Origin: Phyllobates terribilis
Lineage: Eukaryota
Length of the DNA stretch: 64,000 bases
NCBI RefSeq assembly: GCF_046119375.1
Contig: NW_027362761.1
Span: 1,163,058,001-1,163,122,000, forward strand
Reading direction: 5' to 3'
Shown piece by piece: positions 1-28,262 of the stretch. The notes under the pieces are model-generated. The model was given only the letters and a program-made list of their open reading frames with translations, was not told where the DNA came from and did no database searches. Each line of letters begins with the position of its first letter. The first letter of the stretch is position 1. Both the position numbers and the translations under genes were made by a program.

Positions 1-829
1 CCGGTCCGGATGCCAGCTGGATCTTTCCTGAAGAAGAGACCTGTAAAGACTGCCCAGTTCTGGTTAGCGCGGCAACGCTCTTAGTCAGTTCTTGGACCTG
101 ATGGTGCAGGTCTGTTGCCGGGTAATTGTTCAAAGCCTGCGCATCAGCTCCCACAGGCCCTGCAGACAAGGGCGCCGTCTCCTGGTGATAAGTGATAGTA
201 GGGCGCCTGTGGGTCACAGCGCCACCTGGTGCCAGTTCTCGGAGCACCCGGATGGCTCTGTCCTTGAACTGTGCAAAGTCCAGGTCAGGGTCCTGTAAGG
301 CCATTGCCCGCAACTGGGTTCGGTGGGCATTGCACAGTAGACCGTCTATAAATTGTTCGGTCAACAGCTTGTCTTCATTTCCCACGCTGTCAGGGTCTGC
401 CTGCTTAATGGCTCTCAGGGCCTCTTGTAGGTTTAGAGCATAGTCTCTTATACTTTCATGTGCCCGTTGTTTGCACCCATAAAATCTGAGCTTTATTTCG
501 GCTGAGGTGCGGGTATCAAATGTGTCTTTCAGCCGGGCTAGTATCTCTCTGACAGTCCTCTTCTTCCCAGGTGACCAGGACTTTACCTCCCTTTGGGCTG
601 CCCCGATTAACTGGGCCACCAGAATGCTCACTTTTTGCTCTTCTGTGAGGGGGTATATCTGGAAGAGGCTATCAAGTCTTTCCCTAAAGTCACTCAGGGT
701 ATGTGACTCCCCTGAGTACTGGGGTAGCCAGGTTGCCCCCGGGATATAGGGCATGGTGAATAGCATGACCGCTGCAGCGGTTGCGCTGGCGGTGGCTGTG
801 GCAGTGGAGCTCCCCTCGGTGTCCGACAT
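1..829 (-). CDS. Ty3/Gypsy retrotransposon Gag, N-terminal part, open to the window edge
   Basis: ATG at 829; hand translation gives 276 uninterrupted codons (MSDTEGSS...PYIPGATWLPQYSGESHTLSDFRERL...LLTEQFIDGL...). It lies just downstream of a PBS and LTR. It is absent from the ORF track because it has no stop inside the window. Confidence 0.8.
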   Translation of the reverse strand, partial: MSDTEGSSTATATASATAAAVMLFTMPYIPGATWLPQYSGESHTLSDFRERLDSLFQIYPLTEEQKVSILVAQLIGAAQREVKSWSPGKKRTVREILARLKDTFDTRTSAEIKLRFYGCKQRAHESIRDYALNLQEALRAIKQADPDSVGNEDKLLTEQFIDGLLCNAHRTQLRAMALQDPDLDFAQFKDRAIRVLRELAPGGAVTHRRPTITYHQETAPLSAGPVGADAQALNNYPATDLHHQVQELTKSVAALTRTGQSLQVSSSGKIQLASGP

Positions 830-1236: not shown

Positions 1237-1255
1237 AATCCTGCCGACTACGCCA
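1237..1255 (-). promoter_or_regulatory. Primer-binding site complementary to the tRNA-Ser 3' end
   Basis: Plus strand AATCCTGCCGACTACGCCA equals the 3' 19 nt of vertebrate tRNA-Ser (GTAGTCG...CCTGCCGACTACG+CCA). It sits 4 nt from the LTR end. Confidence 0.9.
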
Positions 1256-1259
1256 AAGT

Positions 1260-2320
1260 TGACGCGCTCCCTGGGTCTGTGTTGTGCAGGGGATACCCGG
1301 AGCTGGATCGCTGGGGGTTGTAGTCTCAGTGTGGCGGTGACCCGGTCCGTGCCCAGGGCGGTCAAACCAGTGGCAGTCTTAGGTAATAACAATGTCCGAC
1401 TACGCCACCCGTGGATTGCGGTCAGTGGGGACCGCCGCTGCGCTGCAGACCGCTGAGGCTGATGTTGTATGCGCAGCTAAGTATGGGATAACTCCCCACG
1501 GGAGAAGTATTGCCTCAGGGCAGCTAGTGTGGATGATGGGAGTGATGGTGTGAGCGTCCCAGTAGTAATGGTGCTGGTGCGGCGATGAAACACAGAGACG
1601 TGTGGTGCAGTTCAGGGTCTTTACTGATGGTATAAAACAGACCCTCCCGGGAGTACTGGTTAGCAGTAGGGGTCTGGTCAGTCTGTGAGCAAGCAGGATC
1701 TCCCCTGGCCAGGTGGAGTTGTAGGCCTCCCCGACTATCTGCACTCTTTCCTGGCTACCTTGCTCTATGCGGGTAGAAGTAGCCCACGTTCCTGAGTATA
1801 CCGTGTGGTGCTCACCCGTATGGCCGGTGACTTGGGGCCTTCCGTTAGCCTCCGCTTCACGATGGCGGTGCTGGTCCCTTGCTTGTGACCGTGCCTCCGG
1901 GCTTCTAAGGCCAGAGGACATGGAATCCCCTGCCGGTTGGATTCTGCTGCTGGACCTGGATGTCCTCACAGCCTCGGACTCCGTGTCCGGGTTTAGTGTC
2001 TTCAGCCAAGGCGAGCTATCTAGCTTCCAGCCTCTGGCACTCACTCCTGCTCCTACAGCGCTCCTGTTGTCACTTTCCCTGTGTCTGCTGTCCTCCAGAC
2101 CTGACTGCGTCTCTGTCTGGGACTTCACTCCTCTGCTTGTTCTGCAGGCCCTGTCTGTCTTAATCCCGCCCCAGACCCAGTTTATAAGGGCAGATTCCTC
2201 CCCTCCCAGGTCTGGGTGGGCCGTGTTGCATGCTTAGGGCTCCTGACCAGAGAAACCTCCCACTTGCTCTCAGACATAATATTTCTATTACTGTGGTAAC
2301 CAGACCCCTGGGGTGCCACA
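1260..2320 (-). repeat. 5' LTR of the Gypsy element (1061 bp)
   Basis: TG...CA termini (TGACGCGCTCCC...GGGGTGCCACA). About 300 bp at the left end and the last 29 bp align with the solo LTR at 26100-27290. Confidence 0.85.
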
Positions 2321-4013
2321 TTATCATCCCTAATCTTCATACATGGCTCGACAACAGAGAGAACCTGGATTAAACCCAACTGTTTAGCCATGGCAATTGC
2401 CACCAAGAAGACTGTTTTCAGAGTCAAGTTCTTTATTTTTAATTCATGAACTGGGCCGAAGGCAGGTTTGCAAGGGACTTTCAGGACAAGACTAAGTCTC
2501 TGGATTGCCGTGACAAATCTGATTATCCAGGGATGCGAGGACAATGATGTATCGAAGAAAGCACTTAGTGCCGCAATCTGTACCTTCAAGGTACTAGGTC
2601 TAAGACCTGTGTCAAATCCCGCCTGCAAGAAATCAAGGATCGCAGGGATGTCTGGTTGAAAGATGTCTACCATCCTGTTGAACTGACAAAAGGTCCTCCA
2701 GACTTTTTTATATATGGCTTGGGTTACAGGTTTTCTACTAGCCTGCATAATCTGGATCACTCTGGCGGATAAGCCTTTGGTCTGCAGGAGCCAGGCTGAA
2801 AGCTGGAGTTGTTGAAGATTCCAATGCAACAGTGGAACTTGCGCCAGAAGATCTTCCTGTAGTGGTAAAATGATTGGGTCTTCTAACACTACATGACATA
2901 GAAGGGAGAACCAACTCCTTCTTGGCCAGAATGGGACAATTGCTATGACTGTCGCCCGATCTTCCTGAATCTTCCGCAGCACTCTCGGAATTAGGGGAAC
3001 AGGTGGGAAGGCATATGCTAGACCCTCAATACTGTGAGAGAGCATCCACTGCCAGAGGATGATCTCCTGGGTCGCGAGAGAAGAAAGATGTCATCTTCGC
3101 ATTCGTTCTGGATGCAAACAGGTCTAGGTGAGGCTGACCCCATCTGCGAGTCAGTTGTTGGAACACCTCTTCGTTCAGTTCCCATTCCGAAGCCTTCATT
3201 TGACGCCTGCTGAGGTAGTCTGCCTCTTGATTGTCGGATCCCCGAAGGCAAACTGCTGAAATGGAGCTCACTATCTTCTCTATGCCTAAGATTATCCTGT
3301 TGGCCAGAGACTGGAGAAGTAGATGTCTTGGTCCGCCCTGAAGTCTGATGAAGGAGACTGCCATGATGTTGCCATGACAGATCTTCACATGTCTGTCTCT
3401 CAAGACAGCCCGGCTTCTCTGTAGGGCTTCCCAAATCGCCTGTAGTTCCCGAAAATTCGATTATCGGGTCCGAATCTCTGTGGACCATGTTCCTTAAAGA
3501 TAACAATCTCCCACTCGAGCTCTCCATCCTGAGAGACCTGCGTCTGTGGTCACTAAAAGACAAGGTTCCAGAATCCACTGCACTCCCTTCTGTAGATTCT
3601 TCTGGTCGAACCACCAGTGTAGATAGTCCTGGGTGTCTCTGAACAAAGACATCTTCATGTCTAGGTAATTCTGATGTCTGTCTGTCACTTCCAGGATGGA
3701 TTTCTGTAGAGGCCTGGAATGGAACTGGCTCCATCTGACGCAGGTGATGCATGACGTCATGATTCCCAAAATACAAATTTCCTTTCGAATCTAAGGTTTT
3801 TTCTCTCTTGCAAAATAACGAATCCTTTGTGGGATTGAGAGCATCCTGTCTTCCGGGAGATAAGACATTCGCATTCGGGAGTCGAGATAGACTCCCAGGA
3901 AGATGCGTGAAGTACTTGGGACAAGACTCGATTTTTCTTTGTTCACAATCAAACCCAGGCTGGTTAATGTCTGTAGGACAAATTCCAGATGTTGAGTCAT
4001 ACATAGAGGGCAT
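2321..4013 (-). pseudogene. DIRS ORF3: overlapping N-terminal frame plus tyrosine recombinase (frameshifted, truncated)
   Basis: ORF 3018-4013 overlaps RT in another frame. YR motifs (GLSARVIQIMQASRKPVT, ILDFLQAG, LRPSTLKVQIAALS, LKTVFLVAIA) occur in ORF 2182-3045. Confidence 0.75.
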
Positions 4014-4600
4014 CCAGCCACCAACAGAAAGTCGTCCAAGTACAGAATGATGGTAATATCCCTGAGTCGGATATAGGCTACCACCTCTGCCATGATCTTC
4101 TTAAAGATTCTGGGAGCAGATGACAGGACAAAGGGAAGACATTGGAATTGGTAGTGTAGAATCTGACTGCCTGATGGTAGTGCAAGCCTCAGATATGGCT
4201 GACTTGAGGAATGTATCGGCAGGTGGTAATATACATCCCTGAGGTCCAGGGTGCACATTACCGCATCTGTGTCTATTAGAGGAATGGCTGATCTCACTGA
4301 TTCCATGCGGAATTTTTTGTAGCGGACCCATAGGTTTAGGGGTTTCAGATTGATAATTGAACGGAACTCCCCTGATGGTTTTTTTTACTGAAAACAGAGA
4401 GGAGTAATGGCCCCAATGTTGGTCGTGTTCTGGAATTGGAACAATAACCTTCTGTTGTAGAAGCTTCTCTATGACTGCATGTAGGCGGGAAAGTGAGGTA
4501 GGGGAACCCTTTGTCAGGCGGAATTTTTGAGGGGGATTTTGAGAAAACTCTATCCTGTAACCCTGCGCTATAGTTGTTAATATCCAGGGATTTTGAGTGA
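2790..4600 (-). pseudogene. DIRS pol: reverse transcriptase, RNase H and methyltransferase-like domain
   Basis: ORFs 3791-4306 (LDLRDVYYH, LPFVLSSAPRIF, YLDD), 3494-3769 (TTDAGLSGW) and 3026-3403 (DNQEADYLSR, DLFAS) are all one frame broken by nonsense codons. YAFPP follows after a frameshift. Confidence 0.85.
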
Positions 4601-6020
4601 CCCGATGCCAACTGTTTTTGAAAAACCTTAATCGCCCCCCTACTCTGACATAGTCATTGCCGTTTTGAACGGGAGCTAGTACTGAGCTGGTATTTTTTAT
4701 CTTTGTTCCCCTTATTAAAACTCCAGCTCGTGGACCCCCCTTTTTTCTGAGTGTTATGTTTTCGGAAGGGGAAAGGTTTGCGAAAGGGCTGCTCCTTCTT
4801 TTTCTCCTCAGGGAAGCCCTTCTTTTTATCGGACGCTTTTTCTAGTATGTCATCTAACACTGGTCCGAATACTCTGAGCCCTGAAAATGGAATGTAGCAC
4901 AGCTTGTTCTTAGAAGCGGTATCCCCAGACCATGTCTTTAACCAAACAGCTCTTTGGGCTGAGTTGGAAAGCGCATTATTTATGGCAGCAAATCTGACCC
5001 ATTCTGCCGAAGCGTCGGCCATAAAATTCGTTGTAATTTTTAATAGGGGCAATGATTGAAGGAGAGATTCCCTCAGGGTGCCATCCCGTAGGTGACCCTC
5101 TAGCTCCTCTAGCCAGACTTTCATGGATCTGGCAATAGATGTAGCAGCGACATTAGACTTAATAACTGCCACCAAGGCTTCCCAGGCTTCCATCCACCTT
5201 TCGATCCATAGGATCTTTAAGTCCTGATGAATTCTCAAAGGGGATAGAGGTTTTCTTGACCACTGGGATGTCAATCTTAGGAATGGTGTCCCAAACATTG
5301 GTGTCTTCGGGATCAAAGGAGAGTCGGGTGCAGAAGTCTTGTGGAATAGAGAGCCTCTTCTCCGCATCCTCCCATTCCTCCAGTATCATGTCTTTCACAT
5401 GAGCATTAACAGGGAAAACCATGGAACTCTGGGTTCTAAGTCCACCAAACATCTCATCTTGAATGTTTCTGCTCTTCTCCGTCTCTTCTACCTGCATCGT
5501 GTTTCGGACGGCTCATAGAAGAATATCCATACCATCTGAGTGGAACATATACTTTTTCCGTTCCCCGCCCTGAGGTGGACTAATGGTCTCACGGTTGCCA
5601 GAGTCGCCAGATGGGTCGATTTCACCCTCAGAAGATGGTGCTATATCTTCTCTGGGTCTTTTGGGTCCCCGGACATCCAGGACCTCTGAACCTGGGGGCT
5701 GCAGAGACGTAAGAGAGGCCTGAACTTCTTCTTTGATTATATAACCCCTGGCAAAAATTATGGAATCACCGGGCTCGGAGGATGTTCATTCAGTTGTTTA
5801 AAAAAAGCAGATCACAGACATGGCACAAAACTAAAGTCATTTCAAATGGCAACTTTAGGGCTTTAAGAAACGCTAAAAGAAATCAAGATAAAAAATGTGG
5901 TACTCAGGGTAATTTTTTTCAGACCAAGCAGAGGGAAAAAATTATGGAATCACTCAATTCGGAGGAAAAAATTATGGAATCATGAAAAATAAACACACAA
6001 AAGAACACTCCAATACATCA

Positions 6021-25971: not shown

Positions 25972-28262
25972 ACAGGATGTAACTCAAGATCAGCACAGGA
26001 TCAGTAATGTAATGTATGTACACAGTGACTGCACCAGCAGAATAGTGAGTGCAGCTCTGGGGTATAATACAGGTTGTAACTCAGGATCTGTAATGTATGT
26101 GATGCGTCCCCTGGGCCGTGTGTGTTGGGGAATACCCGGAGCCGGGTCTCCATTTGATGCTGGGGGTTGTAGTCTCCGTGGCGGCGACCCGGTCCGTGCC
26201 CAGGGCGGTCAAACCAAAGGGATAGTTTATATGTTGAATGTCCGACTACGCCACCCGTGGATTGCGGTCACTGGGAACCGCCGCTGCGGGCAGACCGCTG
26301 AGGCTGATGTTGTGTTTGCAGCAGAGGGGTAGGATAACTCCCCACGGGAGGAGTATAGCCTCAGGGCAGTGAGTACAGATGATGGGGGTGATGGTGCGCG
26401 GGAGCAACAGTAATGACTCAGAGTCCAGTGATGCAGTCCAGGGTCTTTACTCAGTTTTACACTCCAAGCCACTTCTGCAGGTAATGGCTGCCCACGTCGT
26501 ACTGTGCTCACCAGGTGAGGGGCTCGGCCAACTCCCAGCTACATTTGGAATGCTTTTCAGGACCCACTTCGTGTGTCCTTTCTCTGACCTGTCGTACCCC
26601 ACAAGTGACCACGTTTCTGTCCAGCTGCCTCGGGCCTTGGCGGGCAAACGTATGTTCCGTTTCCCTGGGTCCTATGTGGTGCCTTCCTAACGGGTGTAGT
26701 GAGGGGAAGTAACACGTGCAGTGCCACGGCTTCCGGTTACTAGCTGAGGGTAGTTGCTCTCCTCCACTAGATGAGGGATCCGGTTCCCTTTCTTGGCCTG
26801 ACCCTCCTACTCTGGTAGCGGCGGGCGTACGGTGGCAACTGGCCGGTCCGCACCCCTGGGGTCCCTTCACTCCACTCCTGGAGCCTTTCCTGCTCTCCTT
26901 CTCCTCCAGGCTCAGGCCTCCTTACTGGGCACACCTCTGGAGCAGAGCTCATGCAGAGCCCCTGCTCTCCGTCACTTCTCCTCAGACTGACCACCGAACC
27001 TAAGATGGCTCCTCCCTTTTATATGCTCCTACTCAGTGCACCCAGGATCTACTCTCCCCACCCACACACTACCAGGTTCCCCCTTTCTAGGTGTTGCCTC
27101 CCCCCACTCCAGCCAGGGACAGTTGTGCTCACTCTTGGGAGCATTGTTGCCCTGTCCCCCCGGAAATGTGGTGTAATGCATGTGGGTGTTAGGGTCCTGA
27201 GCCAGTCTCCGTCCTTACCTGGAAGTGAGATATCACACCTCTGGGTGAGATGCAATACCTCTGTAGCGACCGAACCCTCGGGGCGCTACATATGTACACA
27301 GTGACTGCACCAGTAGAATAGTGAGTACAGCTCTGGAGTATAATACAGGATGTAACTCAGGATCCGTACAGGATCAGTAATGTAATATATGTACACAGTG
27401 ACTGCACAAGTAGAATAGTGAGTGCAGCTCTGGAGTATAATACAGGATGTAACTCAGGATCCGTACAGGATCAGTAATGTAATATATGTACACAGTGACT
27501 GCACAAGCAGAATAGTGAGTGCAGCTCTGGAGTATAATACAGGATGTAACTCAGGATCCGTACAGGATCAGTAATGTAATATATGTACACAGTGACTGCA
27601 CCAGCAGAATAGTGAGTGCAGCTCTGGAGTATAATACAGGATGTAACTCAGGATCAGTAATGTAATGTATGTACACAGTGACTGCACAAGCAGAATAGTG
27701 AGTGCAGCTCTGGAGTATAATACAGGATGTAACTCAGGATCAGTAATGTAATGTATGTACACAGTGACTGCACAAGCAGAATAGTGAGTGCAGCTCTGGA
27801 GTATAATACAGGATGTAACTCAGGATCAGTAATGTAATGTATGTACACAGTGACTGCACAAGCAGAATAGTGAGTGCAGCTCTGGAGTATAATACAGGAT
27901 GTAACTCAGGATCAGTAATGTAATGTATGTACACAGTGACTGCACCAGCAGAATAGTGAGTGCAGCTCTGGAGTATATTGCAGGATGTAACTCAGGATCA
28001 GTAATGTAATATATGTACACAGTGACTGCGCAAGCAGAATAGTGAGTGCAGCTCTGGAGTATAATACAGGATGTAACTCAGGATCCATACAGGATCAGTA
28101 ATGTAATGTATGTACACAGTGACTGCACCAGCAGAATAGTGAGTGCAGCTCTGGAGTATAATACAGGATGTAACTCAGGATCAGTAATGTAATGTATGTA
28201 CACAGTGACTGCACAAGCAGAATAGTGAGTGCAGCTCTGGAGTAGAATACATGATGTAACTC
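25972..28262. repeat. 86-bp satellite (some 99-bp variants), about 13 units, split by a solo LTR
   Basis: Unit TGTACACAGTGACTGCAC(C/A)AGCAGAATAGTGAGTGCAGCTCTGGAGTATAATACAGGATGTAACTCAGGATCAGTAATGTAATGTA. Confidence 0.95.
26100..27290 (-). mobile_element. Gypsy solo LTR (1191 bp) with 4-bp TSD TATG
   Basis: TG...CA ends; TATG at 26096-99 and 27291-94; homologous to LTR 1260-2320, which gives the orientation. Confidence 0.9.

Follow-up and report, generated by a model that had tools for sequence, protein, structure and literature searches.

The first 29 nt of U3 in a clade of Gypsy retrotransposons of Phyllobates terribilis form a hairpin, HP1, and a second hairpin, HP2, begins at the base right after it. 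The two together are probably (about 85%) a selected RNA structure. They are placed at the PPT/U3 junction, where in the model proposed here they might aid plus-strand priming, a role that is put forward tentatively and at a little below even odds. The original prediction concerned HP1; it overlooked HP2 and the fact that the two LTRs carrying HP1 belong to two different element types.

Two LTRs in the window and their elements

The window, which is the whole stretch of 64,000 nucleotides analysed, carries both LTRs on the minus strand, with HP1 as U3 nucleotides 1-29. The features are as follows.

1260..2320, minus strand: LTR1, the 5' LTR of an autonomous Gypsy element of family A (from sequence)
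2292..2320, minus strand: HP1 of LTR1, the first 29 nt of U3 (folding, PPT-adjacent copies, covariation)
2276..2291, minus strand: HP2 of LTR1, short form, a 6-bp stem with a GAAA (GNRA) loop and no spacer to HP1
1238..1255, minus strand: PBS of the family A element, 4 nt past the LTR end, presumably for tRNA-Ser
2..829, minus strand: gag with a PNMA domain (PF14893, E 2e-6), cut by the window edge
1396..1407, minus strand: second copy of the first 12 nt of the PBS, in the 3' part of LTR1
26100..27290, minus strand: solo LTR of the pol-less partner type, with a TATG target-site duplication, sitting in a tandem repeat
27262..27290, minus strand: HP1 of the solo LTR, all pairs Watson-Crick (folding)
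27227..27261, minus strand: HP2 of the solo LTR, long form, a 15-bp stem with four sense-strand G.U pairs and a 5-nt loop
27214..27225, minus strand: segment predicted, on related copies only, to pair with the PPT region (helix P0) in full-length pol-less elements
26242..26253, minus strand: PBS-like 12-mer within the solo LTR

In the 3' LTRs of genome copies HP1 directly follows the PPT, and these PPT-adjacent copies bear out the expected position of the hairpin at the U3 end. The LTR at the PPT end of the window's autonomous element (L034:4165-5225) lies just outside the window on its upstream side, 7.1 kb away, and is 98.7% identical to LTR1. The flanks of this LTR pair (L034:4161-4164 and window 2321-2324) form no matching TSD, and given these flanks the copy may have recombined. 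A second related element starts about 480 nt further on from the pair. LTR1 adjoins a decayed element (window 2321-5400, minus strand) with RT- and tyrosine-recombinase-like frames, which from its motifs we take to be DIRS-like; two of its frames were scanned and gave no Pfam match. BLAST aligns LTR1 and the solo LTR only over the LTR 3' part, and their inner U3 is near the shuffled level.

Family A has the Ty3/Gypsy (Metaviridae) order, gag followed by PR-RT-RH-IN, as judged from ORFs and motifs in L031/L032 and from Pfam domains of homologues. It also has TG...CA LTRs, a PBS, a PPT and a short TSD, with 4-bp TSDs in most complete copies. The closest named Pol matches are anuran (96-97% in Phyllobates terribilis, 69-75% in other frogs). 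Full copies of the solo-LTR type have two LTRs, a PBS and a PPT around an internal region of 2.0-3.2 kb, and gave no tblastn match to Gag or Pol.

The HP1 motif with most paired positions left free has 72,665 matches in the genome and a wider, generalised motif 187,008; the reversed controls of the narrow and wide patterns gave 0 and 1 matches. The PBS pattern has 50,930 matches, of which the first 91 served as a sample independent of the hairpin. The LTR start could be placed in 87 of them: 26 autonomous elements of family A (the LTR1 type), 19 autonomous elements of family G and 42 elements of the solo-LTR type, the pol-less elements being about half of this PBS-anchored sample. Pol is about 80% identical to that of family A both in family G and in further autonomous families including K, and families at 55-65% Pol identity fall outside the sampling.

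A tree of the LTR 3' part places pol-less copies several times among autonomous ones (L212, L213, L244, L041, L250, L194); for five copies that were cut without a found LTR end the placement in the R/U5 tree was ignored. This nesting suggests recombination or exchange at strand transfer between co-packaged RNAs of pol-less and autonomous elements. The 12-nt repeat of the PBS start sits roughly 145-175 nt short of the LTR end, matches at 10 or more of 12 bases in all scored LTRs but one, and is possibly a second tRNA-binding site.

The pair of hairpins in the window

The 29-mers at 2292-2320 and 27262-27290 both fold as predicted, with 7 bp, a 1x2 internal loop, 4 bp and a 4-nt loop. The letters originally given for the hairpin are those of the antisense strand; in the element RNA the loop is GGGU and the internal loop CC/U. 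It was confirmed that all nine differing bases lie in stems, as four full compensatory swaps and one T.G versus C-G. All nine are transitions. The chance of at least four complete pairs among nine differences is 0.0007 over all 29 positions, 0.009 for stems only and 0.049 under the strictest of the nulls, stems without their three terminal pairs. The T.G wobble of LTR1 is a C.A mismatch on the RNA strand (pair 6-24), and was probably copied through retrotransposition because the 98.7% identical LTR outside the window has the same mismatch. As RNA, HP1 of the solo LTR has a strong fold (z -4.0 on the plus and -2.6 on the minus strand) and that of LTR1 a weak one (z -1.9 and +0.1, respectively). 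The unpaired bases are identical between the two window copies, as had been noted, but not across families, where the loop is GGGT, GGAT, GGAC or GGGC and the bulge T, C or A. Fixed bases are limited to C8-C10 and G14-G15.

Covariation and constraint in HP1

The HP1 alignment consisted of PPT-adjacent copies and the two window copies, and left out seven 30-nt rows (indels), family G and copies selected for breaks. Across 22 natural 29-nt types 93% of the cells are paired and 6 of 11 pairs have changed on both sides. None of 500 shuffles gave a covariation score as high and slid structures gave 21-42%; for HP1 as for HP2 shuffle and slide were the controls, the rows are related and the shuffle ignores phylogeny. 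The 30-nt family L185 adds a seventh HP1 pair, 11-20 (T-A). Between 25-nt and 30-nt versions of HP1 the base of the stem does not move from U3 nucleotide 1. The independent events in HP1 are few, since every original swap is a transition, the rows share descent, U3 ends recombine and the shuffle takes no account of phylogeny.

The proposal of a structure under selection held in so far as pairing is kept by compensation; tight selection at each single pair was not supported. Of the first 100 matches of the 72,665-match pattern just 24 are fully Watson-Crick (hand tally), and full pairing on the RNA strand is found in 5/22 family A 29-mers versus 37/41 pol-less ones. Family G, which is active (19/87), lacks HP2, and its HP1 has a degenerate inner stem and one mismatch in the outer stem. 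Of the 87 placed elements of the PBS-anchored sample (91 examined), 82 retain all four terminal pairs. Mismatched types often occur in both LTRs of one element. Selection on HP1 is soft, and its benefit is modest because copies with one or two mismatches keep transposing.

Identity among pol-less families is 76-86% in HP1 and 64-94% in HP2 versus 54-76% in the inner U3 (shuffled control 52-61%), and both hairpins stay similar while synonymous sites of the pol-less ORF are near saturation. They are retained by the pol-less elements although the inner U3 no longer aligns with that of the autonomous family.

Transversions at C28 (internal) number 2,189, and one sequence makes up 81 of the first 100. 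Each of the eight copies checked is a solo LTR carried as a passenger by another repeat; this LTR is also broken in HP2. The remaining C28 transversions are about 400 by extrapolation, which is comparable to the 268 at att position 4. The C28A expansion was rejected as a counter-example to constraint, being made up of such passenger copies, and the double-mismatch HP1 type likewise shares its flanks.

Passenger solo LTRs within another high-copy repeat were seen at L299, L301, L316-L320 and L323-L330, with shared flanks and a 4-bp TSD, and account for many motif matches.

The all-transition swaps, the abundance of mismatched subfamilies and the small number of independent events would fit a history without structural selection, in which template switching keeps an inverted repeat or the swaps come from transition bias and shared descent. 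This reading is largely disfavoured. One-step repair by template switching is unsupported, since a matching partner was found by eye in 1 of the first 100 of the 268 position-4 transversion copies. On the U3 tree the compensated HP1 types sit among mismatched relatives, so that change looks stepwise. Copying would moreover give perfect repeats, not the 88 G.U cells of HP2 described below, and HP1 copies with broken terminal pairs have multiplied as passengers.

The integrase att site sets the sequence of HP1's 5' arm, which the 3' arm follows. In each of the four groups, positions 1-2, 5-6 and 8-10 have their mirror at the U5 end, and position 4 is without any expanded transversion. The mirroring of the fixed C8-C10 is what one expects of an att site. 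Integrase recognition, one of the roles originally suggested, thus explains the 5' arm as a sequence, its 'unpaired' CC included, but leaves the pairing unexplained. That the whole structure is an integrase recognition element in double-stranded DNA (a cruciform or an internal att-like site) is very unlikely. Integrase acts on duplex ends, in which a short internal repeat would not extrude and G.U and GNRA features would be senseless. No free-standing 29-bp units were seen either, all 30 loci inspected running on into U3.

HP2 and the folded strand

In pol-less copies, where HP2 has its long form, 99% of the cells in its 15 pairs are paired; 88 of 315 cells are sense-strand G.U and 3 are unpaired. 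Five K rows in a different register were left out of this alignment. The short form is 97% paired with 3 of 6 pairs compensated. Its loops are GAAA, GAGA, GCAA or GTAA in 11/11 chosen 16-nt rows, the non-GNRA GCAG and the 5-nt loops of family A having been left out. A GNRA tetraloop is a loop with the motif G-N-R-A, and in the short form such a loop closes a covarying stem. A search of Rfam gave no family at gathering score, the four weak matches in 3 loci all being far below it.

The sense strand gives the better HP2 fold in 41 of 51 types and the antisense strand in 1. HP1 folds better on the antisense strand in 37 of 42 types, about 1 kcal being the loop baseline. Counted by full pairing, HP1 of family A favours antisense (14/22 versus 5/22 on sense) and that of pol-less copies sense (37/41 versus 10/41 on antisense); family A mismatches lean to antisense G.T and the commonest pol-less variant is a sense-strand U.G. 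HP1 alone is ambiguous on strand, and the G.U pairs and GNRA loops of HP2 make the sense RNA the likely folded molecule. HP2 is the strongest sign that the pair of hairpins acts as RNA.

It is very unlikely that HP1 is instead a single-stranded DNA hairpin on the minus strand, acting in plus-strand initiation or at the end of minus-strand synthesis, with HP2 as a separate RNA feature. The non-Watson-Crick cells in the 22 HP1 types are 10 A.C (antisense G.T), 4 G.U and 7 others (hand count), on a background without G>A versus C>T bias (48 versus 49). This excess would fit a DNA hairpin, but reduced to independent events it is about 7 versus 3-4 and falls short of significance. The sense U.G of the pol-less copies and the weak DNA fold of HP1 in LTR1 (z -1.2) also speak against it.

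Folding of the sense strand gave z -5.5 for the first 66 nt (27 pol-less types) versus -1.0 for the first 46 nt of family A. In TGTAG-type copies (25 unselected rows) the G-tract of the PPT is predicted to pair with U3 +67 to +78 as a helix, P0, that closes a three-way junction. P0 is a prediction only, shows little two-sided change and is inconsistent in autonomous families. In a 210-nt context the terminal pairs of HP1 have a predicted probability of about 0 in many family A variants. The motif GGTAAG is kept just past HP2 in pol-less families, within the predicted P0 helix; at 27214-27219 (minus strand), where it overlaps the P0 segment, we take it to be splice-donor-like.

Distribution of HP1

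HP1 belongs to one clade, as seen in one genome, because relatives at 30-60% Pol identity from metagenomes and the more distant families of the same genome are without it. An HP1 covariance model run over 78 metagenome loci found none, its only matches being the two window copies and a nested family-H LTR in L192. Among 24 PPT-defined U3 starts of distant relatives, picked by eye, 2 have a z below -2 and the mean is +0.2. In three outgroup families of this genome any U3 hairpin is weak at best and begins 7-10 nt in (sense z of -1.9 or higher). Viral contigs contained no relatives, and four contig sets from sequencing runs yielded no information on strand, ends or expression. The LTR starts of two distant Gypsy families of this genome (L144, L149, L158, L161) have small hairpins, again 7-10 nt into U3, with some G.U variation and z-scores that are not significant.

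The pol-less partner and its cold-shock ORF

The pol-less elements have one long sense ORF of 550-700 aa, Pro-rich and with a C-terminal cold-shock domain (for example L206:2463-4568, minus strand, and L244:1568-3232, plus strand). PF00313 was matched above the cut-off of 27 bits, at 34.9 and 31.2 bits. The cold-shock ORF was found in 29 of 30 pol-less copies, 22 of which have a sense ORF of at least 450 aa, and is absent from the six autonomous copies tested. The median dN/dS of about 0.10 (284/351 pairs) indicates purifying selection. One database homologue was found, an uncharacterised frog protein. The closest solved structures are those of YBX1 and YBX2, with YBX1 nearest; the likeness is the PF00313 domain, and the difference is that the pol-less domain lies in a Pro-rich ORF inside an LTR element. 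This partner, with a conserved cold-shock gene that is absent from the papers and protein databases searched, may be the more surprising result.

The main rival to a role in priming places HP1 and HP2 in RNA handling: within the 3' untranslated end they would serve packaging, export, stability or translational masking, and would be recognised by Gag or the YB-1-like protein. It is rather unlikely. The structure is strongest in the pol-less elements, which must compete in trans and encode the conserved cold-shock ORF. The GNRA loops and the invariant loop GG resemble contact points, and the PNMA-type Gag has a predicted RNA-binding domain (PMC11011659). Such a signal would not, however, require the exact start at the first base of U3; its loop sequences vary, and there is no covarying kissing interaction, the HP1 and HP2 loops being complementary in one family only.

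A more specific version makes HP1-HP2 the response element for the partner's own YB-1-like protein, in a Rev/RRE-like switch in which the Gypsy element gives Gag and Pol and the partner a captured RNA-binding factor. This is quite unlikely. If true, it would mean a two-component retrotransposon system behind one of this genome's largest LTR expansions. YB-1 is reported to raise HIV-1 production (PMC6033064).

A possible role in plus-strand priming

In the reading preferred here, HP1 and the adjoining HP2 would fold in the genomic RNA of the element and help RT to begin plus-strand DNA at the PPT/U3 junction. The helices could pause RT just before the PPT and so favour RNase H cuts there. Structure at the PPT is proposed to pause RT (PMC2829016, PMC4439019) and to direct RNase H cuts (PMC4439019). 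The cut U3 RNA fragment might then refold and leave the minus-strand DNA, by which the template would be cleared and a mis-primer removed. Refolding would help because RNA left downstream of the PPT can misprime, and such mispriming is described as important (PMC2665208).

Other ways of acting were considered and rejected. HP1 does not appear to keep the PPT unpaired, the predicted PPT accessibility with the 3' arm held open being 0.38 versus 0.37. Pairing of the att arm with upstream sequence, as in Sirevirus elements, has a median probability of 0.01. Kissing between the HP1 and HP2 loops was dismissed on the loop complementarity given above.

Comparison with known systems

Full-text literature was searched, with subscription journals, Repbase entries and supplementary files outside its scope, and contained no description of the HP1-HP2 hairpins or of the cold-shock ORF. 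The PNMA gag and the PR-RT-RH-IN order are shared with the PNMA-gag Metaviridae known from amphibians, fish and reptiles (PMC11011659, PMC4131045); PMC4131045 uses no hairpin or stem-loop term. The short inverted repeats and att sites of LTRs (PMC3601003) are comparable in that HP1's 5' arm serves as the att end of U3 and has a partial mirror at U5. Those repeats match the two LTR ends, whereas HP1 has a second, better complement 22 nt inside U3.

Among described features two come closest: the repeat that surrounds the PPT in Sirevirus/copia elements, and the PPT helix of lentiviruses. The former (PMC2829016) is also a stem-loop with a precise place at the PPT/U3 junction, and it is proposed to help the PPT primer form correctly. 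It occurs in a different superfamily from the Gypsy hairpins and has its left arm upstream of the PPT, its right arm inside the LTR and the PPT in the loop. HP1 and HP2 have both arms inside U3, from base 1, and lack that defining geometry. The junction is spanned only by the P0 helix predicted for pol-less elements, in which the G-tract is paired instead of exposed.

The PPT/cPPT structure of HIV-1, SIVcpz and SIVmac, in the passages seen of PMC4439019, is likewise a conserved RNA helix at an RNase H site for which structure-induced pausing of RT is proposed, with the G-rich 3' end in the helix as in the predicted P0. It is SHAPE-supported and overlaps a coding region, whereas HP1-HP2 are known here from sequence and predicted folds, and the same passages describe no terminal hairpin built from att sequence. 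PPT selection and the role of adjacent RNA structure are described there as unknown even for HIV. With about 190,000 natural copies, among them fully paired, mismatched, degenerate and passenger ones, the elements described here make the PPT question testable with natural variants alone.
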